Below are positions 6,007 through 40,326 of a DNA stretch of 64,000 bases, piece by piece. The first letter of the stretch is position 1. Each line of letters starts with the position of its first letter. The translations under genes were made by a program, and so were the position numbers. The notes below the pieces were generated by a model that did not search any database, was not told the DNA's origin, and saw nothing but the letters and a program-made list of their open reading frames with translations. Source of the DNA: Candidatus Omnitrophota bacterium (GTDB taxonomy: Bacteria; Omnitrophota; Gorgyraeia; JABMRJ01); NCBI GenBank assembly GCA_016783555.1, contig JADHWH010000002.1:2037-66036 (forward strand), read 5' to 3'.

Positions 6007-6023
6007 TGATATGGAGGGTAATC

Positions 6024-7091: not shown

Positions 7092-7110
7092 CACTCAAAC
7101 GGAGGTCGGG

Positions 7111-7923: not shown

Positions 7924-7940
7924 TCTGAAAAAGAAAGGAT

Positions 7941-9547: not shown

Positions 9548-9634
9548 AAGAATGTAAATAGAAAAATACAAAATAGCTTGACAAGCCCGCTAATATGTGC
9601 TACTTTAGTAAAAAAAGTAATACCAAGATAGCCC

Positions 9635-10051: not shown

Positions 10052-10115
10052 GCGGTAATATTTTTTTGTTCTTTAGTAACACGAATTTAGGAAACGTAGT
10101 AACAGGGGGGTGGTA

Positions 10116-11399: not shown

Positions 11400-11412
11400 A
11401 AGGAGGTGAATT

Positions 11413-12335: not shown

Positions 12336-12353
12336 GACACTGAAAGAACTTTC

Positions 12354-22502: not shown

Positions 22503-23116
22503 AGCGGGAGCTTGTAATATCTACTAGAAATAAGAAGAAATTCAGAGAGATCAAAAGGCTCTTTAAAGGTTCTAATATAAAGATATCCTCTTTAAATAGA
22601 TTTCCAGGCATACCCCGGGTCATTGAAGACAAGAAGACCTTCAATGGCAACGCCGTAAAGAAGGCGCTTCTTGTATCAAGGCGCACTAAGAGACTGGTCC
22701 TGGCGGATGATTCAGGCCTTGAGGTCTATTCTCTCCACGGAAGACCCGGAGTCTTCTCTTCCCGCTACGCAGGGCCGGGAAAGAGCGACAGGCTCAACTG
22801 CCTTAAACTGCTTCGGGCTTTGAGAAATAAGCCACCCGGCAAAAGAAAGGCCCGCTTCAGATGCGCTGTAGCGATAGCAGATGAGGGAGGGCTTATCAAA
22901 GTTATTGAGAAATCTTGCTCGGGTAAGATCGGGTATGATATGGAGGGTGGATCCGGCTTTGGATACGACCCTCTATTTATACCCCGCGGCTATAAAAAGA
23001 GTTTCGCGCAATTAGGTTCGAAGGTAAAAGATAAGCTGAGCCACAGAGGAAAGGCATTACGGCGGGCAAAGGGTTTTATCGAAAAATATCTTTCAGGATC
23101 CCCTCGACCTCTTTAA
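22499..23116 (+). CDS. rdgB: non-canonical purine NTP pyrophosphatase (RdgB/HAM1)
   Basis: [27 protein letters not shown] motifs. Confidence 0.85.
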
Positions 23117-24758
23117 ACTCACCCTTGAAGATTTCCTTGACGGGCGCTGAACTCATTTTATATTGAGGCTCTTTCAATGTGCCGGTAATCTTCACCCTCC
23201 CCATATAATTACCGGCCTCTGAAATAAGAAGATTGGCTATCTGGGAGGCGTCCGAAGTCCCTTCTACTAAATCCTGTATTATATGCGTCTTCATCAAGAG
23301 ATCTATATTTTGATCGAAATCGACAGAGCCCATAAGGGTCATATTTACCTTTTCGCTGAAAAAAGTAAGGTCTTCGGTTGATATCTTTCTTTGGCCCACG
23401 ATGAAGTTGCCAAACGCCTCTTGGAATGTTACGGAATCAAGACCGGAAAGCTTCAGCAATTCCGCTGCACCGCCCAATAACGGCAATTCCCAGAGATGGC
23501 CGTCTATAACTTTAACCCAGCCGTTGCCGCGCAGGGTCTCTGTCGAAGCCGCCTTTCCGTTAAGGAAGAACTTGCTTGATATAAAACCTTTCATCTTCTC
23601 CTGCCCGAAATTCATATCAGCTGAAAATTTTGCCAGGTTTAGGTCTCTTAGCTCGAAGCTTACGGAATATGGAATATCTTTTTTATCGAGCTCCGCGGAT
23701 ATAATCACAGCCAGATGCCCAAGATACGGCTTTAGGGTAAACCTCTCTGTATTGAGACGCCCGTCTTTTAACCTCAGGTCTAAGTTGAGGTCATCAAGGG
23801 CGAGCCCATGCAGAAAGACCTTATTGGACTTTAATTTCACACTGGCCTCGGAAGCCTCAATCTCGCTTAAGTTCCCGTTAAAAAATACGGCGGCATGACA
23901 CAACCCGGCGGGATTTAATGAATCCTGTATATATCCGGATCTGGGGAGGGCCTTCTTTAAATCCGCAAGATCTAAGCTGGCTTCGCCATAGATATTGATT
24001 AGCGGGTCGGTCAGACCTTTAATCTCCCCCATGATCTCAAAAGAGGATCCGAGAAACGTCCCGCCGATCTTCTCTATCTTCAGGTAGTCATACTTAAGGA
24101 TGAAGTTCCCTTCAGATTTTAGCATAGGAGATGTAAGAGATAGCCGGCCCTGCGGGGAGTCTTTATCCAGATCTGTTATACTGCCTTCTATATTGTAGAC
24201 CGTGTTCTTATATTTAAGGAAGGTGTCATCCAGGCGGATGGTCTCTTTGTCTAAATTTACCTCCCCTGAGATGTTCTCTATTTCAGTGGGCAGGCCGGGG
24301 GCCTCTACGGAAAAATTCGCGAATTTCACAGTCCCATCAAGACCTTTAAAAAATAAGCGTTGCTCCGCGGCCTCGCTTTTTCTTAATGATATATACACAA
24401 CACCGCTTAACTTTGTGGAATTATGTGTGAGATCCTTCAGCCCCACACGCGCCTTGATATCCCTTTCTTTCAAAAGCGGCCAGAGGCTGATGTTGAAAGA
24501 TAGCTCGTTTAGGATTATTAACGGATTACTGGAGGGCGTGTTATCATAGATAGTGATGTCATTGAGATAGAATTGGCTGATCGGCAGATAATTAATGCTG
24601 CCGATGGAGACACTGCGGCCGGTCTTCTCTTCCAGGAAATTTGTAACAAGGCCTTTTATCTTGACGGGCAGTACGTATTTATTTATGTACCAGACGCCAA
24701 TAAGAAGGCCGAACAATATCGTCAATATTATGATTATAACGGTTATTTTTGTTTTCAT
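23076..24758 (-). CDS. AsmA-family outer-membrane biogenesis protein (probable)
   Basis: N-terminal TM anchor then a large, repeat-like, beta-rich periplasmic region with Lys-rich C-terminus. Convergent with and overlapping rdgB. Confidence 0.5.
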   Translation of the reverse strand: MKTKITVIIIILTILFGLLIGVWYINKYVLPVKIKGLVTNFLEEKTGRSVSIGSINYLPISQFYLNDITIYDNTPSSNPLIILNELSFNISLWPLLKERDIKARVGLKDLTHNSTKLSGVVYISLRKSEAAEQRLFFKGLDGTVKFANFSVEAPGLPTEIENISGEVNLDKETIRLDDTFLKYKNTVYNIEGSITDLDKDSPQGRLSLTSPMLKSEGNFILKYDYLKIEKIGGTFLGSSFEIMGEIKGLTDPLINIYGEASLDLADLKKALPRSGYIQDSLNPAGLCHAAVFFNGNLSEIEASEASVKLKSNKVFLHGLALDDLNLDLRLKDGRLNTERFTLKPYLGHLAVIISAELDKKDIPYSVSFELRDLNLAKFSADMNFGQEKMKGFISSKFFLNGKAASTETLRGNGWVKVIDGHLWELPLLGGAAELLKLSGLDSVTFQEAFGNFIVGQRKISTEDLTFFSEKVNMTLMGSVDFDQNIDLLMKTHIIQDLVEGTSDASQIANLLISEAGNYMGRVKITGTLKEPQYKMSSAPVKEIFKGEFKEVEGILKDIFR

Positions 24759-24880
24759 AATGCGATCTTCTTTAAAATCAATCTATTATATACTACATAG
24801 AACGCATATTCAAGCCAATTTTGCAGCCTCTAAGCCGGGTAAAATTGTCAGGCCGGCCTCTAAGATCATTTGACAAATAT

Positions 24881-25912
24881 ATGATTTCAATATATACTTT
24901 TAGAAAAGAGGTGCATGTGAGAATAGAGAGAAATATTAGATACTCGGTTTTGGCAGCAGTTTTTTTATCTTCTATCCTTTTACCTGTATTTACCGCAGAA
25001 GGAAAGGGATCGGAAAAAAAATCCGAAATAGAAGAGCAGGCGCTTTACAAACGGCAGAAGGATGCTCGCAATCTATACGATGTAAAGTTTCCCGAAAAAA
25101 AAGAAAAGTCAGATCTGGAAAAGCATCTTGAAACCAGGATCGCGGGATTGAGAGAGCTTTTTGAAGAAGAGAGGAAGGCCGAAAGGGAAGAGAGGAAGAG
25201 AAAGACGAGGGAGGCGGTAGAGGCCCGTAAGAAGGCGAAGAAGCAGTCGATCCCGGAGAAAAGAGCTCGCAGAGAAGAGGTACGCCGAAAAAGGAAAGAA
25301 TTATTACAGGAGAAGAGAGATAAGCTTAAAAAAGAGCTTGAGAGGCGGAAGCGAGAAAGGCAAGAAGCGCGGGAAGAGAAGATTAGTAAAGAGAAAGAGG
25401 CCAAGCTTAAAAAGAGGGCCGAAAGAAAGGCCCAGCTTAAAGAAGATAAAAAGAGATTGAGAGAAGAAAGGGAGAGAAAGAAGGCCGAGAAAAAGGCTAA
25501 GATAGAAGAGAAGCGGAAGAGATTGAAAGAAGAAAGAGAGAGGCGAAAGGCCGAGAGAAAAGCAAGGCTTGAAGAGAAGAAGAGGAAGAAAGAAGAAGAA
25601 AAGAAAAGACGAGAAGCAGAGAAAAGACCTGAGCCCGAAAAGAAAGAGATAAAAGAAGAACGAAAAGAGAGAGAAGAAGATAAGGCCGAGGAAGAGAGAG
25701 GGTTAGAAGAAGTTAAGAGAGAAGAGCAGGCTGATCTGAAAAAGATTGCCGAGGAAGAGATGGCCTATGCCATAAGGCATAGAGGTTCACACCGATTCAT
25801 TGACTTGCTGCTTGAAGAAGGAGATATCTTATTTAACGAAGGAAAATACGAAGAGGCAGCCAAGAGGTATTTTAAGGTCAACCGCGCCGTTGCCGGCGAA
25901 GTTGTCGAGTAA
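24881..25912 (+). CDS. secreted Lys/Glu/Arg-rich low-complexity (charged coiled-coil) protein with short C-terminal TPR-like segment
   Basis: Hydrophobic signal-like segment (VLAAVFLSSILLPVFTAEG), then about 250 aa of KE/R repeats. Start is uncertain: 24821, 24881 and GTG 24911 are all in frame. Confidence 0.45.
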   Translation: MISIYTFRKEVHVRIERNIRYSVLAAVFLSSILLPVFTAEGKGSEKKSEIEEQALYKRQKDARNLYDVKFPEKKEKSDLEKHLETRIAGLRELFEEERKAEREERKRKTREAVEARKKAKKQSIPEKRARREEVRRKRKELLQEKRDKLKKELERRKRERQEAREEKISKEKEAKLKKRAERKAQLKEDKKRLREERERKKAEKKAKIEEKRKRLKEERERRKAERKARLEEKKRKKEEEKKRREAEKRPEPEKKEIKEERKEREEDKAEEERGLEEVKREEQADLKKIAEEEMAYAIRHRGSHRFIDLLLEEGDILFNEGKYEEAAKRYFKVNRAVAGEVVE

Positions 25913-25981: not shown

Positions 25982-26058
25982 TGGCGCGCCTGGCAGGACT
26001 CGAACCTGCAACCAAGTGGTTCGAAGCCACCTACTCTATCCATTGAGCTACAGGCGCG
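25982..26058 (-). tRNA. tRNA-Arg (anticodon TCG)
   Basis: Reverse complement folds as a cloverleaf with anticodon loop CTTCGAA, T-loop GTTCGAGTC, CCA end encoded. Confidence 0.85.
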
Positions 26059-26350
26059 GGATCAACTTCAACTTAACCGGCGGGCTTCTCGTTGTCGTCG
26101 CCGGTCAACGACTTTTGCGCGTTCTTGAATTCCTTTATAGCCTTCCCCAGAGACCTTGCTATTTTAGGCAAGTTTTTAACATCGAACAAGACAAGGCAGA
26201 TGACCAATATTACTATAATCTCGGGAAGGCCTATCCCAAACATGAAGACCCCTTTTTGTTATTACAAGAATAGCATATGCGCGCCGAAAATTCAAGATTA
26301 AAAACGTTGACTATCCCATACAATATTACTATAATATTACCATATAAAAC

Positions 26351-26428
<78 letters not shown>

Positions 26429-26585
26429 GAATTGCTACTTTGAAATTCATCGGGTGTTGTGAGAGGATTCGAAGCGAGCGAGCGCCGAGCAAAGCGAGGA
26501 TAAGGCCGATAGCCGCGAAGCGGCGAGGCCGTAAGCGAGTGAGGGGAGCCTACGCAGCGAGCGCATAAGCGCGAGCGTAGTAGGC

Positions 26586-26606
26586 GAATCCTCTCACCCC
26601 GACCAG
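26586..26606. repeat. 21-bp perfect direct repeat of the tRNA-Pro 3' end (GAATCCTCTCACCCCGACCAG); att-like scar
   Basis: Identical to 26409..26429. A partial inverted copy (GTGAGAGGATTCGAA) lies at 26460..26474. Confidence 0.8.
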
Positions 26607-26614
26607 GGTAACGT

Positions 26615-26691
26615 GCGCCTGTAGCTCAGTTGGATAGAGCATCTGCCTTCTAAGCCGAGGGTCGCAGGTTCGAATCCTGCCAGGCGTACCA
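26615..26691 (+). tRNA. tRNA-Arg (anticodon TCT)
   Basis: GCGCCTGTAGCTCAGTTGGATAGAGC...anticodon loop CTTCTAA...GGTTCGAATCC...ACCA; one mismatch in the anticodon stem. Confidence 0.8.
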
Positions 26692-26794
26692 ATTCCGCCA
26701 AAGGCGGAAATGATCCTGAGCGAGTACTTGACATCGAAGATGTCAAGTACGAAGCGAAGGACCTTAAGATATTTCGCCGAAGGCGGAAATTTAC

Positions 26795-26872
26795 GGTGGG
26801 TGTAGCTCAGTTGGTCAGAGCACTTGACTGTGGCTCAAGTGGTCGGGAGTTCAAGTCTCCTCACCCACCCCA
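26795..26872 (+). tRNA. tRNA-His (anticodon GTG) with encoded G-1
   Basis: Extra 5' G pairing with discriminator C; anticodon loop CTGTGGC; CCA encoded. Confidence 0.85.
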
Positions 26873-26925: not shown

Positions 26926-27291
26926 ATGAAGTCAAAAAAGGTATTGGTAATCGATGACGAAAAGGATCTGCTTGAGTTGTTGACAACCAGGCTTCAGGGC
27001 GAAGGCTTTGAAGTCACCTGCGCATTTAACGGGAAAGAGGGGCTGGACAAGGCCGCTGAATGGAAACCGGATTTAATACTTCTGGATATCATGATGCCCG
27101 AGATGGACGGCATTCAGACATTGAAGGTATTAAAAGAGACGTCCGAGACAAGGACCATACCCGTGATTATGCTTACCTGTAAAGGAGAGACAGAGAGTAT
27201 ATTTAAGACAGAGAAGCTGGGATCGACAGATTATATCATAAAACCGTTTGACTCGACTGAATTGCTCAGTCTGGTTAAGAGGTATATCTAA
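26926..27291 (+). CDS. stand-alone response-regulator receiver (CheY-like)
   Basis: VLVIDDE...phospho-acceptor D in LILLDIMMPEMDG...conserved T and K. Confidence 0.85.
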   Translation: MKSKKVLVIDDEKDLLELLTTRLQGEGFEVTCAFNGKEGLDKAAEWKPDLILLDIMMPEMDGIQTLKVLKETSETRTIPVIMLTCKGETESIFKTEKLGSTDYIIKPFDSTELLSLVKRYI

Positions 27292-27299
27292 CCAAAGAG

Positions 27300-27686
27300 A
27301 TGGCAAAAGAGAAGATACTCGTTATCGATGACGAAAAAGAATTCTTAAGCCTGCTTGAGAGCCGGCTTGGGGCGGAGGGCTATGAGGTCATCACCGCTTC
27401 AAACGGTATTGAGGGCTTAGAGAGGGTTAGAGAACAGAAACCGGATTTAGTGGTCTGCGATATAGGGATGCCCTTGAAAGACGGTTTTGAAGTTCTAAAG
27501 GAGATAAGGGAAGGGGTAGACAAGCGCCTTCCCGTTATCATAGCTTCAGTTGTAGATGATTTCGATAAGATCACCAAGGTCTATGAAGACGAAGCGGATT
27601 TTTTTGTATCCAAACCGGTCGAGATTATAACGCTTTCGAAGAATATAAGAACCCTGCTTAATCTGTGCAAAGGTAAACGCGAGTAG
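27300..27686 (+). CDS. stand-alone response-regulator receiver (CheY-like)
   Basis: ILVIDDEKEF...DLVVCDIGMPLKDG. Confidence 0.85.
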   Translation: MAKEKILVIDDEKEFLSLLESRLGAEGYEVITASNGIEGLERVREQKPDLVVCDIGMPLKDGFEVLKEIREGVDKRLPVIIASVVDDFDKITKVYEDEADFFVSKPVEIITLSKNIRTLLNLCKGKRE

Positions 27687-27708
27687 TAACTATTGTAGAA
27701 AGCAGAAG

Positions 27709-28461
27709 ATGCCCAGAATAGAAGCGATAAACATATTATTTAAAAGGACGAAACTTTTCATCCAGGATCCCCGTAAATTCATTCAGGATGCCCGCAGATT
27801 CCTGCGCCCTGTGCCCGGAGAATACAGGAAGTGGTCCAGCATGAGTTTGAAGGATTGGCTTTTATATCACCAAAAGGAGATAGTCTTTGATAAGTGTCAC
27901 TGGATGGGCAAACGCGCATTCAAGAACCCATTCGACGCGTGGATATATCAGGAGATAATCTATGAGGTCAAACCCGATCTTATAATAGAGATAGGGAGCG
28001 CAGAAGGCGGAAGCACGCTCTATTTTGCCCATCTCCTTGATATAATCGGAAAAGGAAAGATAGTCTCAATTGATATCGAGAGGTCAAAATTTAATGTAAG
28101 GCATAGAAGGATTGATGTGATTACAGGCGACAGCTCAAGCCCTGAAACAGTTGCCAAGGTATCTAGGCTATGCCGGGGTAGATCCGTTATGGTAATACAT
28201 GACGGCGACCATTCGAAGGGCCAGGTTCTTAAAGACCTGAAGGCCTATTCGAATTTTGTAAGCATGGGAAGTTATCTTATTGTAGAGGATGGTATAATAG
28301 ACCTGTTTAAACCGGGCGACGGCATAGGGACATATGTAGACGGGCCGTATAATGCGGTAAATGACTTCCTGGAAGATCACCCGAATTTTATAGTGGATAA
28401 AGAACGGGAACGTTATATAATGACATATAATCCAAGAGGTTTTCTAAAGAGGATTAAATAA
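27709..28461 (+). CDS. CmcI-family (cephalosporin-hydroxylase-like) class I methyltransferase
   Basis: W..MG...KNPFDAWIYQEIIYEVKPDLIIEIGSAEGGSTLYFAHLL signature of the CmcI/rhamnosyl O-methyltransferase family. Confidence 0.65.
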   Translation: MPRIEAINILFKRTKLFIQDPRKFIQDARRFLRPVPGEYRKWSSMSLKDWLLYHQKEIVFDKCHWMGKRAFKNPFDAWIYQEIIYEVKPDLIIEIGSAEGGSTLYFAHLLDIIGKGKIVSIDIERSKFNVRHRRIDVITGDSSSPETVAKVSRLCRGRSVMVIHDGDHSKGQVLKDLKAYSNFVSMGSYLIVEDGIIDLFKPGDGIGTYVDGPYNAVNDFLEDHPNFIVDKERERYIMTYNPRGFLKRIK

Positions 28462-28462
28462 A

Positions 28463-28957
28463 GTGGAGACGTTCGATTCCATAGAAAGAAGAGCAAGTGT
28501 AAGGGGGTATCAGTCCAAGGCTGTTTCAAAAGAGCTGTTGGAAAGAGTTGTCGACGCCGGAAGGCGGGCGCCTACCGCAAGGGGAGAGGAACCCTGGGAA
28601 TTTGTGGTCATTGTAAATAAGGAGACCCTAAAAGAGCTTGGCGGAATAGCAAACTCCGGCAGCTTTATTAAGGATGCGGCCGCATGCATAGCAATATTCT
28701 GCAGGGATACCAAATATTATCTCGAAGACGGCTGCGCCGCTACCGAAAATATCCTCATTGCCGCTCAAGACCTGGGTTTGGGGGCATGCTGGGTAGCCGG
28801 TGATAAGAAGCCCTACATAGGTGAAGTTTCCAGGCTCTTGGCGGCTCCTCAAGGCTCAAGATTAATAAGTCTAATCTCACTGGGCTGGCCGGCGGAGAAG
28901 ATCAAACAGAATAAGACCCGGCAGTTAAGAGACGTTCTTCACTGGGAAAGATTTTGA
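28463..28957 (+). CDS. nitroreductase-family flavoprotein
   Basis: RRASVRGYQ..., PTARGEEPWEFVVI, AAQDLGLGACWV motifs; GTG start. Confidence 0.75.
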   Translation: METFDSIERRASVRGYQSKAVSKELLERVVDAGRRAPTARGEEPWEFVVIVNKETLKELGGIANSGSFIKDAAACIAIFCRDTKYYLEDGCAATENILIAAQDLGLGACWVAGDKKPYIGEVSRLLAAPQGSRLISLISLGWPAEKIKQNKTRQLRDVLHWERF

Positions 28958-29002
28958 CGTCTTTATCAAAAGAGAAAAGAGCGAAAAGAAAATAGGTAAC
29001 TT

Positions 29003-30052
29003 ATGAACACACGTCTACTTATAATCGGCGGTGATGAAAGGGTAGTGAATCTCCTTAAGGCACTGAGAGAGCTTAGGGGTATTAAGCTGGAGGGGCTTTG
29101 TGATAAAAGAGAGGACTCTCCCGGCATGAACTACGCCCGCAAGATAGCGCTCGATACTTATACCGACTTTAAGACGTGCATATCCGAAAAAAGACCCGAT
29201 ATTATAATCAATACGTCAGGCTGCAAAAAATTCCAAAAAGCGCTTAAGGACCTGAAAAAGAGGGATATCAAGATAATAGATTTAAAGACAGCCGGCCTCT
29301 TATTAGATATTGCCTCCGAGGAGATAAGATCAAAGAAAGAGGTCGATAAGATGAAGACGGAATTTATCTCTGCCACTTCTCACGAATTAAGGACGCCCCT
29401 GACAGCGATAAAAGAGTCGGTTATGCTTGTATTGGACGGCACCGCAGGCAAGGTATCCCCTCAGCAGATACGTTTTTTGAATATTACCAGGAAGAATATA
29501 AATAGACTGGCCGAATTAATAAATAATCTGCTCGATATATCTAAGATAGAGAGCGGCAGGCTAAAGCTCAAAAAAGAATTATGCAGCATATCCGGGCTTG
29601 TGATATACACAGTAAGATCCATGAAGCCCCTTGTCAGAGAGAATAGGCTTAAATTGAAGCTGGATATACCAAAGGCGCTGCCTAAGGTTTACTGCGATCA
29701 CGACAGAGTAGAACAAGTTCTTCTTAATTTTGTAGACAACGCTGCTAAATATACCCCGGCAGGCGGCAACATTAATATTAAGGCCTCGGAGCTCGTTGTT
29801 AAAAAGAAGAGATTCATGCAGATCTCTGTTAGGGATACCGGTATAGGCATAGCCAAGAAAGATATACCCAAGCTTTTTATCAGATTTGAACAGCTGGATA
29901 AATCTCTTACGAGAAGACCCGGCGGGGCAGGCCTCGGGCTTGCTATATGCAGAAAGCTTATCGAGATGCACGGCGGGCGTGTGTGGGTAGACTCTAGACC
30001 AGGCGGGGGTTCGATATTCAGTTTTACATTGCCGGTTGACGGCAGGAAGTGA
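29003..30052 (+). CDS. cytoplasmic sensor histidine kinase (N-terminal uncharacterised domain + HisKA + HATPase_c)
   Basis: H-box SHELRTPL, N-box NAAKYT, G1 DTGIGI, G2 GGAGLGL. No TM segments. Confidence 0.85.
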   Translation: MNTRLLIIGGDERVVNLLKALRELRGIKLEGLCDKREDSPGMNYARKIALDTYTDFKTCISEKRPDIIINTSGCKKFQKALKDLKKRDIKIIDLKTAGLLLDIASEEIRSKKEVDKMKTEFISATSHELRTPLTAIKESVMLVLDGTAGKVSPQQIRFLNITRKNINRLAELINNLLDISKIESGRLKLKKELCSISGLVIYTVRSMKPLVRENRLKLKLDIPKALPKVYCDHDRVEQVLLNFVDNAAKYTPAGGNINIKASELVVKKKRFMQISVRDTGIGIAKKDIPKLFIRFEQLDKSLTRRPGGAGLGLAICRKLIEMHGGRVWVDSRPGGGSIFSFTLPVDGRK

Positions 30053-30079
30053 ACCGGCATTGAAAACGAGGGGGTAGAT

Positions 30080-30484
30080 ATGGCAAAATTGAAGATCTTA
30101 TTGATAGATGACGAAAAAGATTTTCTCGAGCTTATGGGCAGGGTTATAAAGATGTGGGGCTATGATCTGATTACGGCCTTAAACGGAAAGGACGGAATAG
30201 ACGCGGTGAAAAAAAAGAGCCCGGATATCATAATATTAGATTATATAATGCCGGATTTAGACGGACTCTCTACGCTCAAAAAAATAAGGAGAATCGACAG
30301 AAAGATTCCCGTTATCATGTTTACGGCGCACCCCGACGGCAAATCATTAGGTCATACGGAAAGATTAGGGGTATCTTCATATATACCCAAGATGAGCGCA
30401 TATTCCGATACTCACGCTACGCTAAAGGCGGCTATCGAGATGGCGACAAAGAAATTGGGCGATAGGGGGTTACGAGATGGATAA
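30080..30484 (+). CDS. stand-alone response-regulator receiver
   Basis: ILLIDDEKDF...DIIILDYIMPDLDG. Confidence 0.85.
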   Translation: MAKLKILLIDDEKDFLELMGRVIKMWGYDLITALNGKDGIDAVKKKSPDIIILDYIMPDLDGLSTLKKIRRIDRKIPVIMFTAHPDGKSLGHTERLGVSSYIPKMSAYSDTHATLKAAIEMATKKLGDRGLRDG

Positions 30485-30848
30485 GAAGAGAATATTATTG
30501 GTTGATGATGAAAAAGACCTGGTTGAGACATTGACCTTCAGGCTGAAGGCAAATAATTACGAAGTAATCCCGGCCTATGACGGACAGGACGCATTCGACA
30601 AGGCGAAGAAAGAAAAACCGGATATAATAATATTGGATTTAATGCTCCCCAAGATGGACGGATATAAAGTCTGCGGCCTGCTTAAGGCTGATGCCAGATA
30701 CAGGAGTATCCCTATAGTCTTGTTTACCGCCCGCGCCCAGGATTCAGACAGGAAGATGGGTGAAGAAGTCGGCGCAGACGCGTATGTCACCAAGCCTTTT
30801 GAACCGCAGGTCTTGCTTGCAAAGATCAAAGAGTTATTAGAAAAATAA
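30477..30848 (+). CDS. stand-alone response-regulator receiver
   Basis: ILLVDDEKDL...DIIILDLMLPKMDG; ATGA overlap with the upstream receiver. Confidence 0.85.
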   Translation: MDKKRILLVDDEKDLVETLTFRLKANNYEVIPAYDGQDAFDKAKKEKPDIIILDLMLPKMDGYKVCGLLKADARYRSIPIVLFTARAQDSDRKMGEEVGADAYVTKPFEPQVLLAKIKELLEK

Positions 30849-30857
30849 GGAGATTAC

Positions 30858-32405
30858 ATGGCACGCGCTAAGGTAAAACAGAGAGGCGATGATTACCGAG
30901 AGCTTGTAGAAGGGCTTAAGAAGGCGAATGAAGAACTGAACAAAATAAATCAGATGAAATCCGATTTCATATCAGCGGTCTCTCATGAAATCCGCACGCC
31001 GTTGGCCTTGATCAAAGAGGGGGTTACGCAGGTATTAGACGGGACACTGGGGAGCCTCGCCAAAGATCAAGAGAGGTCCTTATCTATTGCGTGGGATAGT
31101 ATCGATAGGCTGTCAAAGGTGGTGGATTCTCTCTTGGATATCTCCAAGCTTGATGCGGGAAGGGTTGAGCTCAGAAGGACCCACGTAGATATGCCTGAAG
31201 TCGTAGAGGGCGTAGTCGAAGAATTCCGGCGCCTTGCCGAGAGCAAACGGATCAGTTTAAAATACAACAGGCCTGAAGAAAATTTCGAGATGTTTATAGA
31301 CGCAGAGAACATCAGGGGGGTTATTTCAAACCTTCTCTCAAACGCATTCAAGTTTACAAAAGAGGGCGGGGAGATTACAGTTGACTTGGAGGATAAAGGT
31401 AAGCATATGATTATGTCGGTAAAGGACACCGGCATCGGGATTGCGAAGGCTAATGTACCGAAGTTGTTTGATAAATATTCTCAATTCGGCCAAGCCCCCG
31501 CAGGCTACAAAGAAAAAGGCACGGGCCTGGGCCTCGCTATCGCTAAGGGGGTAGTAGAGATGCATAACGGCCGCATCTGGGCAGAATCGGCATTGGGCAA
31601 AGGAAGCACGTTTATATTTATGATTCCCAGGTTAAGCAGCGAAACCGTATTCAGGGAATATATATCTTACGGAATTAAAGAAGCCATTAATAAGGAGTCT
31701 TTCTTATCCATAGTGGTCTTGCGGCTAGAGGGCTATAAAGAACTACAGAAGAAGTTAAAGTCCGATGAGACCATAACTATATTGACCGGTCTGGAAGGAG
31801 ATGTAAGGAAGATACTCAGAAGCAATACAGACATATTCTTAAGAGACACCGGCGAATGCGTAATAGTGCTTTTCGGCACGGACAGAAGCGGGGTTATGGT
31901 CGTTAAGAACAAGGTTATAGAAGCGGCGAGAAGATATATAGACCAGGTTCAAAAAAAGCGTAAGACCATACTTAAAATCAGCATAGGGATATCCACCTAC
32001 CCCGAAGAAGCCAGGACGAGCGAAGAGATGCTCTTTAAGGCCCGTGTTAGATTAATCCCCATGTATACCGGCCCCGAGAGGAGGCAGTATTACCGTAAGA
32101 TCTGCAAGATTGACGCGAGGGCTGTTAAGGAGGAGAAAGAGCTTATGGAGCTTGAGACGGTTGATGTAAGCGAAGGGGGAGTCTGTATATTTACTGATTC
32201 GCCGGTCAAAAAAGGCTCAATGCACGAATTTATCTTTGACTTGCCGAGAGGGCTTGGAACCATAAAGACGAAGGTCAAAGCGATATGGGCAATAAAAGAA
32301 GAAGGAAGAGAGAGTTATAGAACCGGTTTTCAGTTTACTGAAGTGAGCAATGAGGATTTAAAGAAACTCAGGAGTTTTATATATTCCGGTTCCAGGGGAG
32401 AATAG
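30858..32405 (+). CDS. cytoplasmic histidine kinase fused to a degenerate GGDEF-like domain and a C-terminal PilZ domain
   Basis: HisKA (SHEIRTPL) + HATPase_c (DTGIGI, GTGLGL); middle domain with GGDEF-like fold (IVVLRLEGYKEL...RDTGECVIVL) lacking the GG(D/E)EF active site; PilZ motifs RRQYYR and DVSEGG. Confidence 0.7.
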   Translation: MARAKVKQRGDDYRELVEGLKKANEELNKINQMKSDFISAVSHEIRTPLALIKEGVTQVLDGTLGSLAKDQERSLSIAWDSIDRLSKVVDSLLDISKLDAGRVELRRTHVDMPEVVEGVVEEFRRLAESKRISLKYNRPEENFEMFIDAENIRGVISNLLSNAFKFTKEGGEITVDLEDKGKHMIMSVKDTGIGIAKANVPKLFDKYSQFGQAPAGYKEKGTGLGLAIAKGVVEMHNGRIWAESALGKGSTFIFMIPRLSSETVFREYISYGIKEAINKESFLSIVVLRLEGYKELQKKLKSDETITILTGLEGDVRKILRSNTDIFLRDTGECVIVLFGTDRSGVMVVKNKVIEAARRYIDQVQKKRKTILKISIGISTYPEEARTSEEMLFKARVRLIPMYTGPERRQYYRKICKIDARAVKEEKELMELETVDVSEGGVCIFTDSPVKKGSMHEFIFDLPRGLGTIKTKVKAIWAIKEEGRESYRTGFQFTEVSNEDLKKLRSFIYSGSRGE

Positions 32406-32408
32406 CAT

Positions 32409-34106
32409 ATGGCGAGGAAGGTCAAGAAGGCGTTAGGCGAAAGCCTGGTAGATGCGGGGATTATAACGCGCGACCAGCTTAAAGAGGCGCAGGATGAAGA
32501 ACAGAAGACCGGCCAGCGCCTGCGCACGGTTTTAGTGAAGACGGGGTTAATCGCGGAAGAAGACCTTGTGGCGTTCTTAAGCGATAAATTAGGCGTGCCG
32601 AGAATCGAACTGGGCAACTATTTAATAGACTCAAAGATAGTGGAATTAATACCGGAGGAACTCGCAAGAAAGCACGGACTTATCCCGGTATTAAAGATAG
32701 GAAACCGCCTTACCTGCGTCATGGTCGACCCCTGGAATGTATTTGCGCTCGATGAGATAAGGTTGAGGACCAATCTTATTATCGAGCCGGCGGTGGCTAC
32801 CGAGTCCGAAATCAAGAAGGCCCAGAATGAGCATTACGGCGCAAAGGGGACGATGGAGGATGTAATAAAGAGTGTCGAGAAAGAGAAAGTCGAGATAAAA
32901 GCGGGAGAGACGGATGTCAGGAGGTTAGAAGGGGTAGCTGAGGAGCCTGTTGTCGTAAGATTGGTTAATGTGATAATCATGAAGGCCGTTGGGGAAAGGG
33001 CAAGTGATATACATATTGAACCGGAAGAGACGGCGCTTAAGACGCGATTCAGGGTTGACGGCATGCTTCATGAGGTCCAGTCTCCGCCTAAGCATCTGCA
33101 GTCTGCTATAATCTCAAGGATTAAGATAATGGCAAATTTAGACATCGCCGAGAGGAGGATCCCCCAGGACGGAAGATTCGACATAAATATAGCGGGTAGA
33201 AAGATCGATGTCCGCGTATCATGTGTGCCTACCGTATACGGCGAGAATGTAGTCATGCGGCTTTTGGACGTAGCCACGACGCTTTTGACGCTTAGGGATA
33301 TAGGGTTTTCCAAAGAGATTCTCCTTGAATATCAGAAGCTCATTTCGCGGCCGCACGGCATAATATTGGTTACAGGCCCTACCGGCAGCGGAAAGACAAC
33401 TACGCTCTATGCGTCTTTAGACAAGATAAACACCGTTGAGAAAAATATAATCACTATTGAAGATCCCGTTGAATATAAACTCGCGGGCATAAGGCAGATT
33501 CAGGTAAATGAGAAAGTGAATCTTACCTTCGCCAATGGGCTGAGGTCCATATTGAGACAGGATCCGGATATAATAATGATAGGCGAGATAAGAGACTATG
33601 ATGCCGCTGAGATCGCAATCCACGCCGCTCTTACCGGCCATCTTGTCTTTTCCACGCTCCATACTAACGACGCGCCGGGCGCCGTAACGAGATTGCTGGA
33701 TATAGGCCTGGAGCCGTTTTTAGTCTCCTCTTCTATAATAGGCATCCTGGCCCAGAGGCTTATAAGGACAGTCTGCAAGGATTGCAAAGAGGAATATACG
33801 CCTACCGAAGAAGAGTTGAGAGATATCGGGTTATTAGAAAGAAGCCAGAAAAAAATAAAATTCTATAGGGGCAAGGGGTGTCAGAAGTGTATGAATACAG
33901 GCTACAAGGGCAGAATAGGGATCTTTGAGCTGATGCCTATTACCGATAAGATTCGAAATCTAATCGTTGCCAAGGCCCCCGTAGAAGATATAAGAAGAGA
34001 GGCGCTTTCGTTGAAAATGGTTACATTGACAGCGAACGGCATAGATAAGATTGTGGAAGGCCTTACCACAGCGGAAGAGGTGCTGCGGGTGACTCAGGAG
34101 GAGTAA
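32409..34106 (+). CDS. pilB: type IV pilus assembly ATPase PilB/GspE with N-terminal MshEN-type domain
   Basis: Two MshEN-like motifs (ALGESLVDAGIITRDQLKEAQ, RLRTVLVKTGLIAEEDLVAFLSDKLG); Walker A GPTGSGKTT; tetracysteine CKDC...CQKC. Confidence 0.85.
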   Translation: MARKVKKALGESLVDAGIITRDQLKEAQDEEQKTGQRLRTVLVKTGLIAEEDLVAFLSDKLGVPRIELGNYLIDSKIVELIPEELARKHGLIPVLKIGNRLTCVMVDPWNVFALDEIRLRTNLIIEPAVATESEIKKAQNEHYGAKGTMEDVIKSVEKEKVEIKAGETDVRRLEGVAEEPVVVRLVNVIIMKAVGERASDIHIEPEETALKTRFRVDGMLHEVQSPPKHLQSAIISRIKIMANLDIAERRIPQDGRFDINIAGRKIDVRVSCVPTVYGENVVMRLLDVATTLLTLRDIGFSKEILLEYQKLISRPHGIILVTGPTGSGKTTTLYASLDKINTVEKNIITIEDPVEYKLAGIRQIQVNEKVNLTFANGLRSILRQDPDIIMIGEIRDYDAAEIAIHAALTGHLVFSTLHTNDAPGAVTRLLDIGLEPFLVSSSIIGILAQRLIRTVCKDCKEEYTPTEEELRDIGLLERSQKKIKFYRGKGCQKCMNTGYKGRIGIFELMPITDKIRNLIVAKAPVEDIRREALSLKMVTLTANGIDKIVEGLTTAEEVLRVTQEE

Positions 34107-35320
34107 TGAGCAGATTTGCCTACAGGGCGCGTGATACTATGGGAAAACCCGTCAAGGGCTCGATAGAAGCAGATACAAAGACAGAAGTCATAGACAGGCT
34201 TAATAAGATGAACTATATGGCGACGTATGTTGGTGAAATCAGACCCAGCACGAAGTTAGAATCGATGCTCCAGGGGTTAAAGAGGGTTAGAAGTGATGAC
34301 ATGCTGCTGTTTTTTATTCAATTCTCCAACATGATAAATGCGGGTATACCCATTCTTACGTGCCTTCACACGCTCGAGGCGCAGATAGAGAATGTAGTCT
34401 TAAAGAAGACCGTGCGCGGCGTGGCAAATAACGTTGAAGGCGGGGATAGTCTTTCTCAGGCATTTGCGGGATTTCCCTTTATATTTCCCAGGCTATTTAC
34501 AAATATGATAAAGGCCGGCGAGGCAAGCGGAAAGCTCGATACTGTTTTGGCAAGATACGCCCAGTTTTTTGAACATCAGGAGGATTTAAGACAGCAGGTA
34601 AAGGGGGCGCTTATATATCCTATAATACTTTTATGCGCGGGGCTTGTCGTTATTCTTATCATAGTTACTTTTGTTATCCCTCAGTTTGCCGAGATCTACA
34701 TGAAGGCAGGCATAAGGCTGCCGATACCGACGCTGATCGTCTATAATATCGGCACAGCGATCAGGCATTATTGGTATCTCTTCGTTTTAGCTCTTCTCCT
34801 TATCTCAACCGGCATTAAATATTATTCAAGGACCAAGAGAGGCACGCTTAAATTTGATAGATTGAAATTGAAGATACCCGTCATCGGGCCGCTCAACCGC
34901 AAGGTAGCTATCGCCAGATTCTCAAGGACGCTGGCGACGCTTGTCGGAAGTGGTGTCCCTATATTGGAGTCGTTGGATATAACAAGGGGCGTTATAGAGA
35001 ATGAAATATTGGCGCGGGTTATAGATAATATGCGAGGCTGTGTCGAGAAGGGCGATAGGATGGCCGGGTCTTTAAAGATAAGCGAAGAATTTCCGTCAGA
35101 TGTGATTCAGATGATCAATGTGGGGGAAGAGACCGGAAGTCTCGATACGATGTTAAATAAGATCGCGGACTTCTATGATATGACGGTTGGATACGCTGTA
35201 AGGAGATTGACCACTCTTATCGAGCCGTTCTTTTTAGTCATAATGGGCGTTATGATAGGGTTTATAATGGCATCGATGCTTCTGCCCATTTTTGATATGA
35301 TAAAGACCTTGCGCCATTGA
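34106..35320 (+). CDS. pilC: type IV pilus inner-membrane platform protein PilC/GspF
   Basis: Two GspF repeats and 3 TM segments; ATGA overlap with pilB. Confidence 0.85.
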   Translation: MSRFAYRARDTMGKPVKGSIEADTKTEVIDRLNKMNYMATYVGEIRPSTKLESMLQGLKRVRSDDMLLFFIQFSNMINAGIPILTCLHTLEAQIENVVLKKTVRGVANNVEGGDSLSQAFAGFPFIFPRLFTNMIKAGEASGKLDTVLARYAQFFEHQEDLRQQVKGALIYPIILLCAGLVVILIIVTFVIPQFAEIYMKAGIRLPIPTLIVYNIGTAIRHYWYLFVLALLLISTGIKYYSRTKRGTLKFDRLKLKIPVIGPLNRKVAIARFSRTLATLVGSGVPILESLDITRGVIENEILARVIDNMRGCVEKGDRMAGSLKISEEFPSDVIQMINVGEETGSLDTMLNKIADFYDMTVGYAVRRLTTLIEPFFLVIMGVMIGFIMASMLLPIFDMIKTLRH

Positions 35321-35340
35321 GATGGAAGAGGGGGTGAAGT

Positions 35341-35568
35341 ATGCAAGTATTTATGGAAATGTTCTTAACGGTTGCGTCTTTAATCTTTTTGCTTGTCGGC
35401 GCACTCTTTTTGCTCTCTCCACAGACCGTTGTCAAGATCTCTAATTTTTTAAATCTGACCGCATTTACCATAGATGAAAAGATGCACAGGATGCGGAGGG
35501 CGGTCGGGGCATTCTTTCTTGTCTTGAGTATTGTGTTGTGGTATATTGGTTTTCCAGGTCCGCGTTAA
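35341..35568 (+). CDS. hypothetical small two-TM membrane protein
   Basis: 75 aa with two hydrophobic helices, lying between pilC and the pilin gene. Confidence 0.35.
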   Translation: MQVFMEMFLTVASLIFLLVGALFLLSPQTVVKISNFLNLTAFTIDEKMHRMRRAVGAFFLVLSIVLWYIGFPGPR

Positions 35569-35610
35569 GGGAATTTATTATAAAAAAAGAGATAAAAAGG
35601 AGGATTAAGG

Positions 35611-36039
35611 ATGAAGAGAGGCTTTACGATTCTCGAACTTCTGATAGTCATAGCTGTAATATCCATCCTGGTCGGCATAGCGCTTCCGCGATTCAGGGGC
35701 ATGCAGGTGGAAGGGCTCTACGCGCAGGCAAAAGGAGAATTGCGCACACTCCAGACCGCCGTGGAGAGCTATTATATCCACAATGGCGCTTATCCTTCTA
35801 CTTTTCCCGATGATGTCGAAGGGGCAACCCCTAATATTATCGGCGCCACTGCTCCTACGGATCCATTTACCACCAGCAGTGATTATGGATATGATACCAC
35901 GGGAAATTATTACATCATATGGTCGGTAGGCCCCGGCGGCACGGCGACCATTTCCGGGATTGATACGAATGGAGCTCTTGAAGGCACAACCGGCGATGAT
36001 ATATACGCCTCTAATGCCTTTGCTACTATAGGCGGCTGA
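35611..36039 (+). CDS. type IV major pilin (class III signal peptide)
   Basis: MKRG|FTILELLIVIAVISIL prepilin cleavage/methylation motif with Glu at +5; strong SD AAAAAGGAGG. Confidence 0.8.
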   Translation: MKRGFTILELLIVIAVISILVGIALPRFRGMQVEGLYAQAKGELRTLQTAVESYYIHNGAYPSTFPDDVEGATPNIIGATAPTDPFTTSSDYGYDTTGNYYIIWSVGPGGTATISGIDTNGALEGTTGDDIYASNAFATIGG

Positions 36040-36049
36040 TCGGACATAT

Positions 36050-36448
36050 ATGGGGGACTCGATTCGCGGTTTTACATTATTGGAGGTCCTTATCGCTACT
36101 GTCATTATGACGGCAGGGATGCTGGCGATAATGTGGGCCTTTAGTGCGGGGATATTCGCCATAAGCGACGTCGAGAATGTAGAAGATACCCTGAATGCCG
36201 GCCAGTTGAAGATGGAGGAGGTCTTCGCCGAACTAAAAGATATAAATTTTTCTGTGTTGACTGACCAGAATGTGCAGGATTTTGAAGATAGAAAGAGCGG
36301 CACGGTTTCGGGATACGATGTGACCGTAGACTTATATGAAGATGATCTTGATTCAGGAGATCTTATGCAGATAGATGTGAAGGTTGAATGGGATGTAAAA
36401 GGCGGAACAGCAGAACTTATCTTAACAACGTTAGCAGCCGACTATTAA
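36050..36448 (+). CDS. type IV minor pilin (prepilin-type N-terminus)
   Basis: IRG|FTLLEVLIATVIMTAG; acidic globular domain. Confidence 0.6.
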   Translation: MGDSIRGFTLLEVLIATVIMTAGMLAIMWAFSAGIFAISDVENVEDTLNAGQLKMEEVFAELKDINFSVLTDQNVQDFEDRKSGTVSGYDVTVDLYEDDLDSGDLMQIDVKVEWDVKGGTAELILTTLAADY

Positions 36449-37620
36449 TGAAGAAGATGCGGGGTGCGAATCACGCGTTCACAATTATAGAATTGATGAT
36501 GACGATTGTGCTCTTTGTCATTTTAACCGTAGTCTCAATCTTTCTATTCCGTACGATTTTATTAAGCTGGTCCAGCCAGGAGACCAGGGCGGGTATCGAT
36601 ATAGATATCGATTTTGCAGTGGAGAATATGGTGCGGGACCTGAGGGAGGCCCAGATAGTAGGTTTTGCCAATGCCGATGAGATAAGATTTACACAAGGCC
36701 TCAACGACGACACTAATAATTACATATATTACCTTTATGACTCCAGTGATTCCTATCCGCCCGATTTTGACCAGGATACATACCAATTAAGAAAGGCCGG
36801 CTTAACCGGCGTAAGCGGCCGGGATCTGTCAACGGGGACTTTTACCTATGGCGAGGGAGATATTATCACAACCGATGTGATATCGCCCAATGACGCGGAT
36901 GATCCATCGGATCTGTCGTTCAGGGTGCCGGAGGCGTTTTATTATGTACTCCACGCAGGCAACCTCTATACAGGCGACGATATTACTTTTCAAGGTTCCA
37001 GCGGAACGATCACCGGTGATTTAAGTGCCTCTGATAAAGTATCACAAGAAAGCGGCATGACGATAAACGGGACTATATACGAGATGGGCGACTCCAATAC
37101 GACTCTGCCTATCGTGGGACTCTCTTACTACGGGAGTATCGCTGATTATTCTTACACAACCAACCAGACATTTTCGGCAGATCCGGCGGCTGGGATACAC
37201 TACATAGACGGCAATGTCACAATAACGAGCAACGTGACTATTGACAACGCAACGATTATCGCTACGGAAGGTATTACCCTGCGGAATGCCACGGGTTTGA
37301 CCGTAAGCCCGGCATATCCTTATCCCGCCCTAGTCGCAGGGAGCAGTATTAACGCAAGCGGGGCAGAGGGCACTATAAACGGCCTGGTCTATGCTGCTGG
37401 TAACGTAGATTTAGATCAGGCGAACATTATCCTTAATGGTACGATGGTTGCGGGCGGCACCATTACTATGACCGACGGGACCTTTACGTGTACCTATGAT
37501 TCTGATATACAATCTGTCTCACCCCCATATTTTTATTACAGCACTATTACTTTAGATTTATGCGTCGAAAGCGACGACGAGAAGATAGAATCGAGCACAA
37601 AGGTAAGGCCGAGATTATGA
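36448..37620 (+). CDS. large pseudopilin (prepilin-type N-terminus + N/T/G-rich beta-helix-like repeat domain)
   Basis: Start set at ATG 36448 (TAATG overlap): MKKMRGANHA|FTIIELMMTIVLFVIL; C-terminal repeats (NVTITSNVTIDNATIIATEGITL...TINGLVYAAGNVDL). Confidence 0.6.
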   Translation: MKKMRGANHAFTIIELMMTIVLFVILTVVSIFLFRTILLSWSSQETRAGIDIDIDFAVENMVRDLREAQIVGFANADEIRFTQGLNDDTNNYIYYLYDSSDSYPPDFDQDTYQLRKAGLTGVSGRDLSTGTFTYGEGDIITTDVISPNDADDPSDLSFRVPEAFYYVLHAGNLYTGDDITFQGSSGTITGDLSASDKVSQESGMTINGTIYEMGDSNTTLPIVGLSYYGSIADYSYTTNQTFSADPAAGIHYIDGNVTITSNVTIDNATIIATEGITLRNATGLTVSPAYPYPALVAGSSINASGAEGTINGLVYAAGNVDLDQANIILNGTMVAGGTITMTDGTFTCTYDSDIQSVSPPYFYYSTITLDLCVESDDEKIESSTKVRPRL

Positions 37621-38726: not shown

Positions 38727-38735
38727 AGATTACTT

Positions 38736-40325: not shown

Positions 40326-40326
40326 G

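Follow-up and report, generated by a model that had tools for sequence, protein, structure and literature searches.

A histidine kinase with a degenerate GGDEF-like domain and a canonical PilZ domain directly upstream of pilB in Candidatus Omnitrophota

RESULTS

The signaling locus

We analyzed a 64-kb chromosomal stretch (the window) from a metagenome-assembled genome of Candidatus Omnitrophota, in which a run of signaling genes stands directly before the genes of a type IV pilus or related type IV filament. Eight genes, all on the + strand at positions 26926 to 32405, encode in order two single-domain receivers (REC1 and REC2), a CmcI-type methyltransferase, a nitroreductase, a histidine kinase (HK1), two further receivers (REC3 and REC4), and a second histidine kinase (HK2). 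HK2, the main subject of this report, is a 515-residue protein (30858 to 32405, + strand) whose kinase core is followed by a GGDEF-like domain and a PilZ domain, and the next gene, pilB (32409 to 34106, + strand), encodes a PilB/GspE-type assembly ATPase. The genes are tightly packed: REC3 and REC4 overlap by 8 nucleotides (nt), 9 nt separate REC4 from HK2, 3 nt separate HK2 from pilB, and pilB overlaps pilC by 1 nt. A preliminary description of this DNA had given the same eight genes, and we found all of the open reading frames (ORFs) in that order and at those coordinates; every domain that it had called passed the corresponding Pfam or NCBIfam hidden Markov model (HMM). The GenBank accession numbers are MBL7068357.1 for HK2, the gene for which is labeled "PilZ domain-containing protein," MBL7068354.1 for HK1, MBL7068356.1 for REC4, and MBL7068358.1 for PilB.

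Domain architecture of HK2

By Pfam, HK2 consists of a dimerization and histidine phosphotransfer (DHp) domain (HisKA; residues 33 to 101, positions 30954 to 31160), a catalytic and ATP-binding (CA) domain (HATPase_c; residues 148 to 258, positions 31299 to 31631), a degenerate GGDEF-like domain (residues 259 to 396, positions 31632 to 32045), and a PilZ domain (residues 407 to 509, positions 32076 to 32384). In a full-length AlphaFold2 (AF2) model with a predicted local distance difference test score of 84.9, all four domains were folded. For the full-length model, Foldseek returned only kinase cores, such as that of HK853, on which it superposes, and residues 262 to 515 were modeled separately for Foldseek searches of the C-terminal module.

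The kinase boxes are intact and invariant in 57 homologs: an SHEIRTPL H-box with the phosphoacceptor H43 and an E-x-x-T phosphatase motif, N162, D190-T-G-I-G, and G221-T-G-L-G-L. HisKA kinases with an H-E-x-x-T motif are bifunctional, with both kinase and phosphatase activities. The ratios of nonsynonymous to synonymous substitution rates (dN/dS) against an ortholog of 83% identity were 0.12 for the DHp-CA core, 0.067 for the GGDEF-like domain, and 0.14 for the PilZ domain, so that all three parts of the protein are under purifying selection. We considered whether HK2 is a pseudogene or pseudokinase in its relatives, as the preliminary description had allowed, and ruled this out: the ORFs are intact, only one full-length representative lacks the H-box, and dN/dS is near 0.1.

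The GGDEF-like domain scored 31.7 bits against PF00990 (cutoff, 23.8) and matched TpbB by phmmer (6e-5). By Foldseek, the model of the C-terminal module matched the GGDEF structure 4urg of T. maritima with a template modeling (TM) score of 0.72 and a root mean square deviation (RMSD) of 2.8 Å, and further GGDEF structures (4iob and 3i5c, with TpbB and WspR among the matches) with TM scores of about 0.7 and RMSDs of 2.7 to 3.5 Å. Alignments to WspR and TpbB placed TGE-C or TGECV at the position of the GG(D/E)EF signature and LRLEGYKELQKK at that of the metal- and GTP-binding residues DxD...FKxxND. The RxxD inhibitory site (I-site) reads R-SNTD in both alignments, with the arginine off by one residue, and the 83% ortholog shows the same shift. 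A GG[DE]EF signature was found in none of 57 Omnitrophota HK-GGDEF homologs and in none of 30 representatives with the full HK-GGDEF-PilZ architecture. The earlier claim that this motif is lost is thus borne out, with the correction that its reading as RDTGE was offset by one or two residues. These comparisons indicate a domain that keeps the cyclase fold and is catalytically dead. No other part of HK2 is as constrained, despite the lost signature, so the domain is functional, though not as a cyclase.

The PilZ domain scored 51.1 bits against PF07238 (cutoff, 22.5), with residues 407 to 509 covering positions 1 to 101 of the 102-position profile. Both binding motifs are present, RxxxR as R409-QYY-R413 and DxSxxG as D436-V-S-E-G-G441; R409, R413, and G441 do not vary among 12 homologs, and 29 of the 30 full-architecture representatives carry both motifs. 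The AF2 model has the β-barrel and terminal helix of the PilZ fold, with strands over residues 413 to 495 and the helix at 498 to 510. Foldseek matched the C-terminal model to PilZ structures with bound c-di-GMP (cyclic dimeric GMP), including YcgR, Alg44, and 4xrn, with TM scores of 0.63 to 0.75 (0.72 to 0.75 for 4xrn and 4rt0; 5y6g was also matched). HMM score, motifs, and fold agree that this is a bona fide PilZ domain, as first described. Canonical PilZ domains bind c-di-GMP, and the PilZ domain of HK2 probably does so as well.

Only about 30 residues precede the H-box of HK2, and the PAS domains found in longer relatives are missing, so the C-terminal GGDEF-PilZ module is the sole candidate for its input. 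Neither HK2 nor HK1 has a hydrophobic segment (maximum Kyte-Doolittle value over 19 residues of 1.2, versus 3.4 in PilC), which agrees with the earlier view that both kinases are soluble and have no transmembrane sensor. HK1 nonetheless carries a candidate sensor of another kind, a Rossmann-like N-terminal domain.

The MshEN domain of PilB

The preliminary description had assigned PilB a c-di-GMP-binding MshEN domain at its N terminus. The fold stands: the ATPase (T2SSE, 9e-138) matched MshEN (PF05157) with 73.4 bits (1.5e-20) and NCBIfam NF053729 with 51.4 bits (cutoff, 38). Among the NCBIfam ATPase models, GspE scored above its cutoff (642.6) and PilB just below its own (646.4). The binding motif does not stand. 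Ligand binding by MshEN domains has been traced to a tandem 24-residue motif, RLGxx(L/V/I)(L/V/I)xxG(L/V/I)(L/V/I)xxxxLxxxLxxQ, for which a relaxed form has also been given (PMC5013675). The corresponding region of PilB (residues 8 to 60, positions 32430 to 32588) reads ALGESLVDAGIITRDQLKEAQDEE-QKTGQ-RLRTVLVKTGLIAEEDLVAFLSDK and departs even from the relaxed pattern at four positions, with A, Q, and E at positions 1, 21, and 24 of motif I and R at position 3 of motif II. These include the equivalents of MshE R9, Q32, and G40, of which Arg9 and Gln32 are important for binding and Gly40 is a conserved glycine used in defining the MshEN set (PMC5013675).

The PilBs of four related loci (L001, L002, L003, and L014; loci compared with the window are numbered from L001) deviate at identical positions, with a Pro at position 1 of motif I in L001 that the relaxed form allows. 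The ATPase of the more distant locus L005 has a near-canonical MshEN motif. PilB thus has an MshEN fold with a degenerate c-di-GMP motif, which leaves the PilZ domain of HK2 as the only canonical c-di-GMP site at the locus. The idea that this PilZ domain compensates specifically for the degenerate MshEN motif is unsupported; L013 and L014 have no HK2-type gene, and their PilBs are equally degenerate.

Conservation of HK2, its receiver partner, and its position

The arrangement around HK2 recurs in its relatives (given here with their identity to HK2). L001 (83%) has HK1-REC-REC-HK2-pilB-pilC-pilins-pilMN-pilO-x-glnA, the order of the window. L002 and L008 (53%) have a DHp-only ORF, then REC-REC-HK2-REC-pilB-pilC; L003 and L004 (49%) a DHp-only ORF, then REC-HK2-pilB-pilC-pilins-pilMN-pilO; and L011 (47%, with an N-terminal PAS domain) HK2-REC-pilB. 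More distantly, HK2-REC lies three genes downstream of, and codirectional with, a pilD-gspE-gspF-G/J/K cluster in L005 (37%), and the HK2-type gene follows cheW-Y-B-A-C-D in L009 (39%) and a MerR gene in L006 and L007 (31%). An HK2-type gene is thus upstream of pilB, with at most one REC between them, in five of eight HK2-type lineages and in a type IV filament cluster in six of the eight; a stand-alone REC adjoins the kinase in all eight. The physical link between HK2 and pilB, for which conserved synteny had been proposed as a check, is kept in relatives down to 47% identity. Scans of metagenome contigs with the GGDEF-PilZ module gave no matches. As a separate observation, the PAS-HK-GGDEF-PilZ relative in L009 sits with a REC at the end of a complete che cluster (2404 to 9815), which indicates that the module has also been recruited to chemotaxis loci.

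REC4 (30477 to 30848, + strand; 123 residues; Response_reg, 6.2e-27) is 66 to 90% identical to kinase-adjacent RECs in L001, L002, L003, L009, L012, L013, and L014. Receivers of this type accompany HK2-type kinases (in L003 and L009 and, similarly, L006 and L011) as well as HK1-type kinases (L012 and L014). Judged by this distribution, the REC4-type receiver is the constant partner of HK2.

Three loci have the HK1 type of kinase without an HK2-type gene nearby: HK1-REC-pilB-pilins-pilC in L013, HK1-REC-(Fic)-pilB-...-pilC-pilin-pilM in L014, and HK1-REC-REC followed by mobile genes in L012. Across the lineage, the design is thus a soluble histidine kinase with one or two output-less receivers directly before pilB, and HK2 is a clade-specific addition to it.

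An exhaustive profile search covered 1.84 billion representative sequences, and we examined the best 150 matches. Among these, at least 30 clusters had the full HK-GGDEF-PilZ architecture, eight of them without a PAS domain, like HK2; most of the other clusters ended at the degenerate GGDEF domain without a PilZ domain, and some had the kinase core only. Omnitrophota have a large family of kinases with such GGDEF domains (P0007 to P0072 and P0365 to P0503 in our numbering). All members examined lack both GG(D/E)EF and DxD and keep a "GE" remnant and sometimes RxxD. Their additional domains vary, with PilZ, REC, or nothing at the C terminus and PAS, HAMP, GAF, or Rossmann domains at the N terminus.

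Four loci carry stand-alone DHp (HisKA-only) ORFs of 77 to 86 residues (L002, 6018 to 6278; L003, 250 to 483; L004, 440 to 673; L008, 2926 to 3186). They have an intact H-box (SHELRTPL or AHRVRTPL) and occupy the position of HK1, directly upstream of the receivers. Given their conservation in two lineages some 50% apart, these ORFs are probably functional, perhaps in dephosphorylation or phosphotransfer, and not debris. An attempt to trace those of L002 and L003 to either HK1 or HK2 failed, as they are about 40 to 45% identical to both.

HK1 and the other receivers

HK1 (29003 to 30052, + strand) has an SHELRTPL H-box in its HisKA domain (29351 to 29557; 2.3e-16) and an HATPase_c domain (29696 to 30040; 7e-32), and its full-length homologs are 47 to 54% identical. 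The N-terminal domain (29003 to 29332, residues 1 to 110) gave no Pfam call alone. A profile of its 12-member family matched acylating acetaldehyde dehydrogenase in its NAD-binding domain (1nvm_B, DmpF; 6e-7), Rex (1e-3), and GFO/IDH/MocA proteins, and the individual members matched GFO_IDH_MocA (9 of 12), DapB_N (8 of 12), and CoA_binding (5 of 12). This Rossmann-type domain of about 110 residues is a candidate cytoplasmic sensor. The GxGxxG loop reads GGDERV in the HK1 clade, versus VGAGRAG in a sister clade of Rossmann-HK-GGDEF proteins (e.g., P0024), and because of this degenerate loop, dinucleotide binding by HK1 is uncertain. The sister-clade proteins with a Rossmann N-terminal domain (P0024, P0033, P0034, P0040, P0051, and P0054) may form a family of redox- or dinucleotide-sensing kinases.

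The four receivers have 121 to 134 residues with PF00072 as their only domain above the Pfam curated cutoff (E values of 1e-24 to 1e-28 overall), in keeping with the earlier statement that they have no output domain, and all four retain the catalytic DD, D54, T(S), and K residues. They had also been called orphans, a term that does not apply in its usual sense given that each kinase has receivers alongside it. REC3 (30080 to 30484, + strand; 134 residues; 9.4e-24) has K-M in place of K-P and a short C-terminal tail, and its orthologs lie 3' of HK1 or of a DHp-only ORF in L001 (93%), L013 (57%), and L002 (55%). REC1 (26926 to 27291, + strand; 121 residues; 1.9e-28) has DD, D54, T, and K intact; its nearest relative, at 57%, is the second REC after the HK1-type kinase in L012.

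REC2 (27300 to 27686, + strand; 128 residues; 2.7e-24) has no close match among the HK and pil loci compared. It forms a trio (27300 to 28957) with the CmcI/rhamnosyl O-methyltransferase family enzyme (27709 to 28461, + strand; RMNT_CmcI, PF04989, 7.6e-49) and a small nitroreductase-family flavoprotein (28463 to 28957, + strand; PF00881, 9e-21, and PF14512). This trio recurs in L016 (1994 to 3650) and L017 (1642 to 3298) with 72, 71, and 64% identity behind other upstream genes. The methyltransferase family is widely distributed over phyla at 55 to 71% identity, and a more distant homolog in L015 lies among polysaccharide genes without a REC. An output-less receiver is here paired with two enzymes. 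In L012, HK1 directly follows Ham1, and the window has at that point an insertion of an AsmA-like gene, a K/E-rich ORF, four tRNAs, REC1, and the REC2 trio. The eight genes had been read as one soluble multibranch phosphorelay; given a trio that travels alone, an HK1 and REC that sit before pilB without HK2, and the insertion relative to L012, the comparison shows the string to be instead a mosaic of separable modules.

The type IV filament cluster and flanking genes

Downstream of pilB, all on the + strand, lie pilC, which encodes a PilC/GspF platform protein (34106 to 35320; T2SSF, 1e-60), an ORF for a 75-residue membrane protein (35341 to 35568; weak DUF4345 match and a hydrophobic segment with a Kyte-Doolittle value of 2.7), four pilin or pilin-like genes (35611 to 36039, 36050 to 36448, 36388 to 37620, and 37560 to 38726), a gene for a PilM-PilN fusion (38736 to 40325; PilM_2, 3.6e-32, and PilN), pilO (40327 to 40869; Pfam PilO), and a 138-residue ORF that ends the cluster (40859 to 41275), with glnA starting 87 nt further on. 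N_methyl scored above its cutoff in the first two pilin genes, the first of which also matched T2SSG; the third reached 17.2 bits, below the cutoff of 21.2, and the fourth had no Pfam match. Consecutive pilin-like ORFs, listed from their first start codons, overlap by 61 nt twice (36388 to 36448 and 37560 to 37620), and the true starts of the 410- and 388-residue pilin-like genes probably lie further downstream. PilM and PilN form one 529-residue protein, and L001 and L003 have this fusion as well. The 75-residue membrane ORF has a counterpart of the same size at the same place in L003 (5354 to 5581).

The cluster has the components of a type IV filament system: an extension ATPase, a platform protein, prepilins with the N-methylation motif, and PilM, PilN, and PilO. 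No secretin (PilQ), retraction ATPase (PilT), or prepilin peptidase (PilD) was found among the scanned ORFs of the window; these genes may be elsewhere in the genome, and the cluster could accordingly belong to a type IVa pilus or to a system like type II secretion.

From REC1 through the 138-residue ORF (26926 to 41275), all genes are on one strand with intergenic gaps of −61 to 53 nt. A consensus scan found no terminator-like site on the + strand between 26172 and 35504; upstream of the major pilin gene, a hairpin resembling a terminator (35504) and a match resembling a promoter (35519) both fall in the 3' part of the 75-residue membrane ORF. The Rfam scan of the window found four tRNAs only and no c-di-GMP riboswitch. 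These tRNAs (25982 to 26872; Arg-TCG on the − strand, and Pro-TGG, Arg-TCT, and His-GTG on the + strand) end 53 nt before REC1. Before them is a 363-residue ORF (24821 to 25912) with an extremely high content of Lys, Glu, and Arg, coiled-coil-like repeats, an N-terminal hydrophobic segment, and no Pfam match; it adjoins an AsmA-like gene on the opposite strand (23076 to 24758).

The wider flanks are housekeeping genes, with queD/C/E/F, fumarase, RNase PH, and Ham1 upstream and glnA, gdh, bio genes, and feoB downstream. GC content is even across the window (about 0.39 to 0.48), we saw no signs of a foreign island, and nearly all named homologs are from Omnitrophota. A gene at 14121 to 14621 encodes a DUF520/YajQ-family protein (PF04461, 3.8e-55); members of this family have reportedly been found to bind c-di-GMP in Xanthomonas. 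In other genomes, L014 has a Fic-domain gene and AbiEii toxin genes within the pilus operon (9545 to 13346), and L012 has an AbiEii gene and a serine recombinase directly after HK1-REC-REC (10003 to 13597), as if mobile and defense genes targeted the HK1/pilus locus.

DISCUSSION

We give about an even chance to the reading that the type IV pilus (type IV filament) operon has this locus as its regulatory front end, in which HK2, as a c-di-GMP-gated kinase/phosphatase, acts on REC4 and through it on the pilus. Under this reading, c-di-GMP would bind the PilZ domain of HK2 and shift the kinase/phosphatase balance of the HisKA core, by analogy with CckA and RavS; alternatively, as in the action of HapZ on SagS, the bound PilZ domain could gate how the receiver reaches the DHp helix. 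HK2 would in this way set the phosphorylation of the adjacent REC4-type receiver and possibly of REC3. Because the receiver has no output domain, it would act through protein-protein contact, and phosphorylated REC4 may contact PilB, PilC, or PilM and so switch pilus assembly, by analogy with PilG and PilH. HK1, with its Rossmann-like domain, would feed the same pool of receivers as a second, older input, and the REC2-methyltransferase-nitroreductase trio, probably with REC1, would be a separate module that is merely cotranscribed. We lean slightly toward the pilus as the output of the HK2 pathway. A further proposal, that c-di-GMP control bypasses the MshEN domain of PilB and runs through the PilZ-gated HK2 to REC4 and the pilus machine, with the dead GGDEF domain as an allosteric or dimerizing link between PilZ and kinase, is one that we put forward tentatively and regard as rather doubtful.

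Several points weigh against a c-di-GMP-gated front end. We infer, and do not observe, that c-di-GMP binds, that the kinase is regulated, and what the receivers target. Neither a diguanylate cyclase nor a phosphodiesterase is encoded in the 64-kb window. The synteny comparison rests on exact-protein look-ups of homologs on metagenomic contigs and is a small sample, and a single GTDB species representative (L008, with the layout of L002) has a close HK2 relative. Because the HK2-type genes of L009, in a che cluster, and of L006 and L007, next to a MerR gene, are not pilus linked, the output need not be the pilus. As the PilBs of L013 and L014 are as degenerate without HK2, HK2 is not demonstrably the replacement for a lost PilB site. 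Finally, this reading does not account for the strong constraint on the GGDEF domain.

The constraint on a domain without any catalytic residues would fit a docking role, in which the GGDEF-PilZ tail binds the PilB N-terminal domain, with its nonbinding MshEN fold, and places the kinase at the pilus base or regulates PilB directly, with phosphotransfer secondary. The 3-nt distance between HK2 and pilB fits such a role as well, as does the likeness of the PilB N-terminal domain, without a c-di-GMP motif, to the N1D domain of X. citri PilB, which binds a PilZ protein while FimX, a degenerate GGDEF-EAL protein, is the c-di-GMP sensor (PMC8389850, PMC11656802). However, the PilZ protein that binds PilB in Xanthomonas is noncanonical and does not bind c-di-GMP (PMC11656802), whereas the PilZ domain of HK2 keeps both motifs. 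Family members also occur away from any PilB (L006 and L009), and a kinase core with an adjacent REC is conserved everywhere, which argues for phosphotransfer as the core function. We consider docking unlikely. The GGDEF domain might instead be the c-di-GMP receptor, binding through its I-site and sequestering or localizing the kinase, with the PilZ domain redundant or bound to something else. The C-terminal GGDEF domain of SgmT binds c-di-GMP and sequesters the protein in this way (PMC3509222), and several members of the HK2 family have RxxD five residues before the signature (RNTD in P0004, RATD in P0011, and RRAD in P0009). HK2 and its 83% ortholog do not, given the shifted arginine of R-SNTD, and HK2 has neither the REC nor the GAF domain of SgmT, so that we hold this explanation to be very unlikely.

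It could also be that general cytoplasmic signaling genes happen to lie beside the pilus operon, with receivers that serve as phosphate sinks or have nonpilus targets. Omnitrophota loci are rich in tandem HK and orphan REC genes (L013 has three HKs and six single-domain RECs), HK2-type genes also lie beside che genes or MerR, and the locus in the window is itself a mosaic of modules. Against such chance neighborhood, an HK and a REC are directly upstream of pilB in at least seven lineages, with two kinase types, 47 to 83% identity, and otherwise differing flanks, and the genes overlap or are 3 to 9 nt apart. It seems quite unlikely to us.

If HK2 does act as a c-di-GMP-gated kinase on the pilus, it would be the first histidine kinase to sense through a fused PilZ domain, and the first case in which c-di-GMP controls a type IV pilus through a phosphorelay. 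Bacteria signal mainly in two currencies, c-di-GMP and two-component phosphorylation, and few direct links between the two are known (CckA, RavS, SgmT, and HapZ-SagS). A kinase with a canonical PilZ domain as its only sensor would be a clean and easily testable case of a two-component system with c-di-GMP input, since a soluble 515-residue kinase and a 123-residue receiver are involved. Omnitrophota are uncultivated and probably include host-attached, ultrasmall forms; the conserved place before pilB offers a concrete hypothesis for the regulation of their pili. The wider kinase family, at least 100 clusters in which the GGDEF domain is dead yet under strong constraint, points to an unrecognized regulatory use of the GGDEF fold.

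Histidine kinases that respond to c-di-GMP are already known, as is the control of PilB by c-di-GMP. Surveys of PilZ fusions list REC, GGDEF, EAL, HD-GYP, methyl-accepting chemotaxis protein (MCP), CheC, and Ser/Thr kinase partners and no histidine kinases (10.1101/814665; 10.1101/2020.02.11.943704), and our full-text literature searches, which had partial coverage and are not proof of absence, found no characterized HK-PilZ fusion. SgmT of the SgmT/DigR system in Myxococcus xanthus is, like HK2, a histidine kinase with a C-terminal noncatalytic GGDEF domain, and it is a c-di-GMP receptor tied to type IV pilus-dependent behavior (PMC3509222). As a hybrid kinase, however, SgmT has GAF and REC domains; it binds through the GGDEF I-site, has no PilZ domain, and signals to a DNA-binding regulator (PMC3509222), whereas HK2 has no GAF or REC domain, a shifted I-site, a canonical PilZ domain, and output-less receiver partners next to pilB. 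In Pseudomonas aeruginosa, HapZ-SagS couples c-di-GMP to two-component phosphotransfer through a PilZ domain, as we propose for HK2 (10.1101/2020.02.11.943704; PMC12564702), but HapZ is an independent adaptor made up of one PilZ domain, and it binds in trans to the REC of a hybrid kinase, while the PilZ domain and kinase of HK2 form a single protein, with the receiver on another. In CckA of Caulobacter and RavS of Xanthomonas, c-di-GMP directly switches the kinase/phosphatase or phosphotransfer state, and HK2 differs from both in that they have no dedicated receptor domain and bind it on the CA domain (PMC12564702; PMC6707612).

Control of the pilus extension ATPase by c-di-GMP with the same set of domains is known from PilB-PilZ-FimX of X. 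citri and from the MshEN domains of MshE and PilB (PMC8389850; PMC11656802; PMC5013675). No histidine kinase takes part in those systems: MshEN binds c-di-GMP directly, or a nonbinding PilZ protein bridges PilB to the EAL domain of FimX. The present locus, by contrast, combines a degenerate MshEN motif with a canonical, kinase-fused PilZ domain. The Pil-Chp system of Pseudomonas (ChpA-PilG/PilH) has a kinase that signals to single-domain CheY-like receivers controlling type IV pili, as proposed here (PMC11656802), but ChpA is a CheA-type, chemoreceptor-fed kinase, whereas the kinases of this locus are soluble HisKA-type proteins with Rossmann-like or GGDEF-PilZ inputs. What sets the Omnitrophota locus apart is the sensor, a canonical PilZ domain behind a dead GGDEF domain; the partner, a conserved output-less receiver; and the position, before a motif-degenerate pilB.

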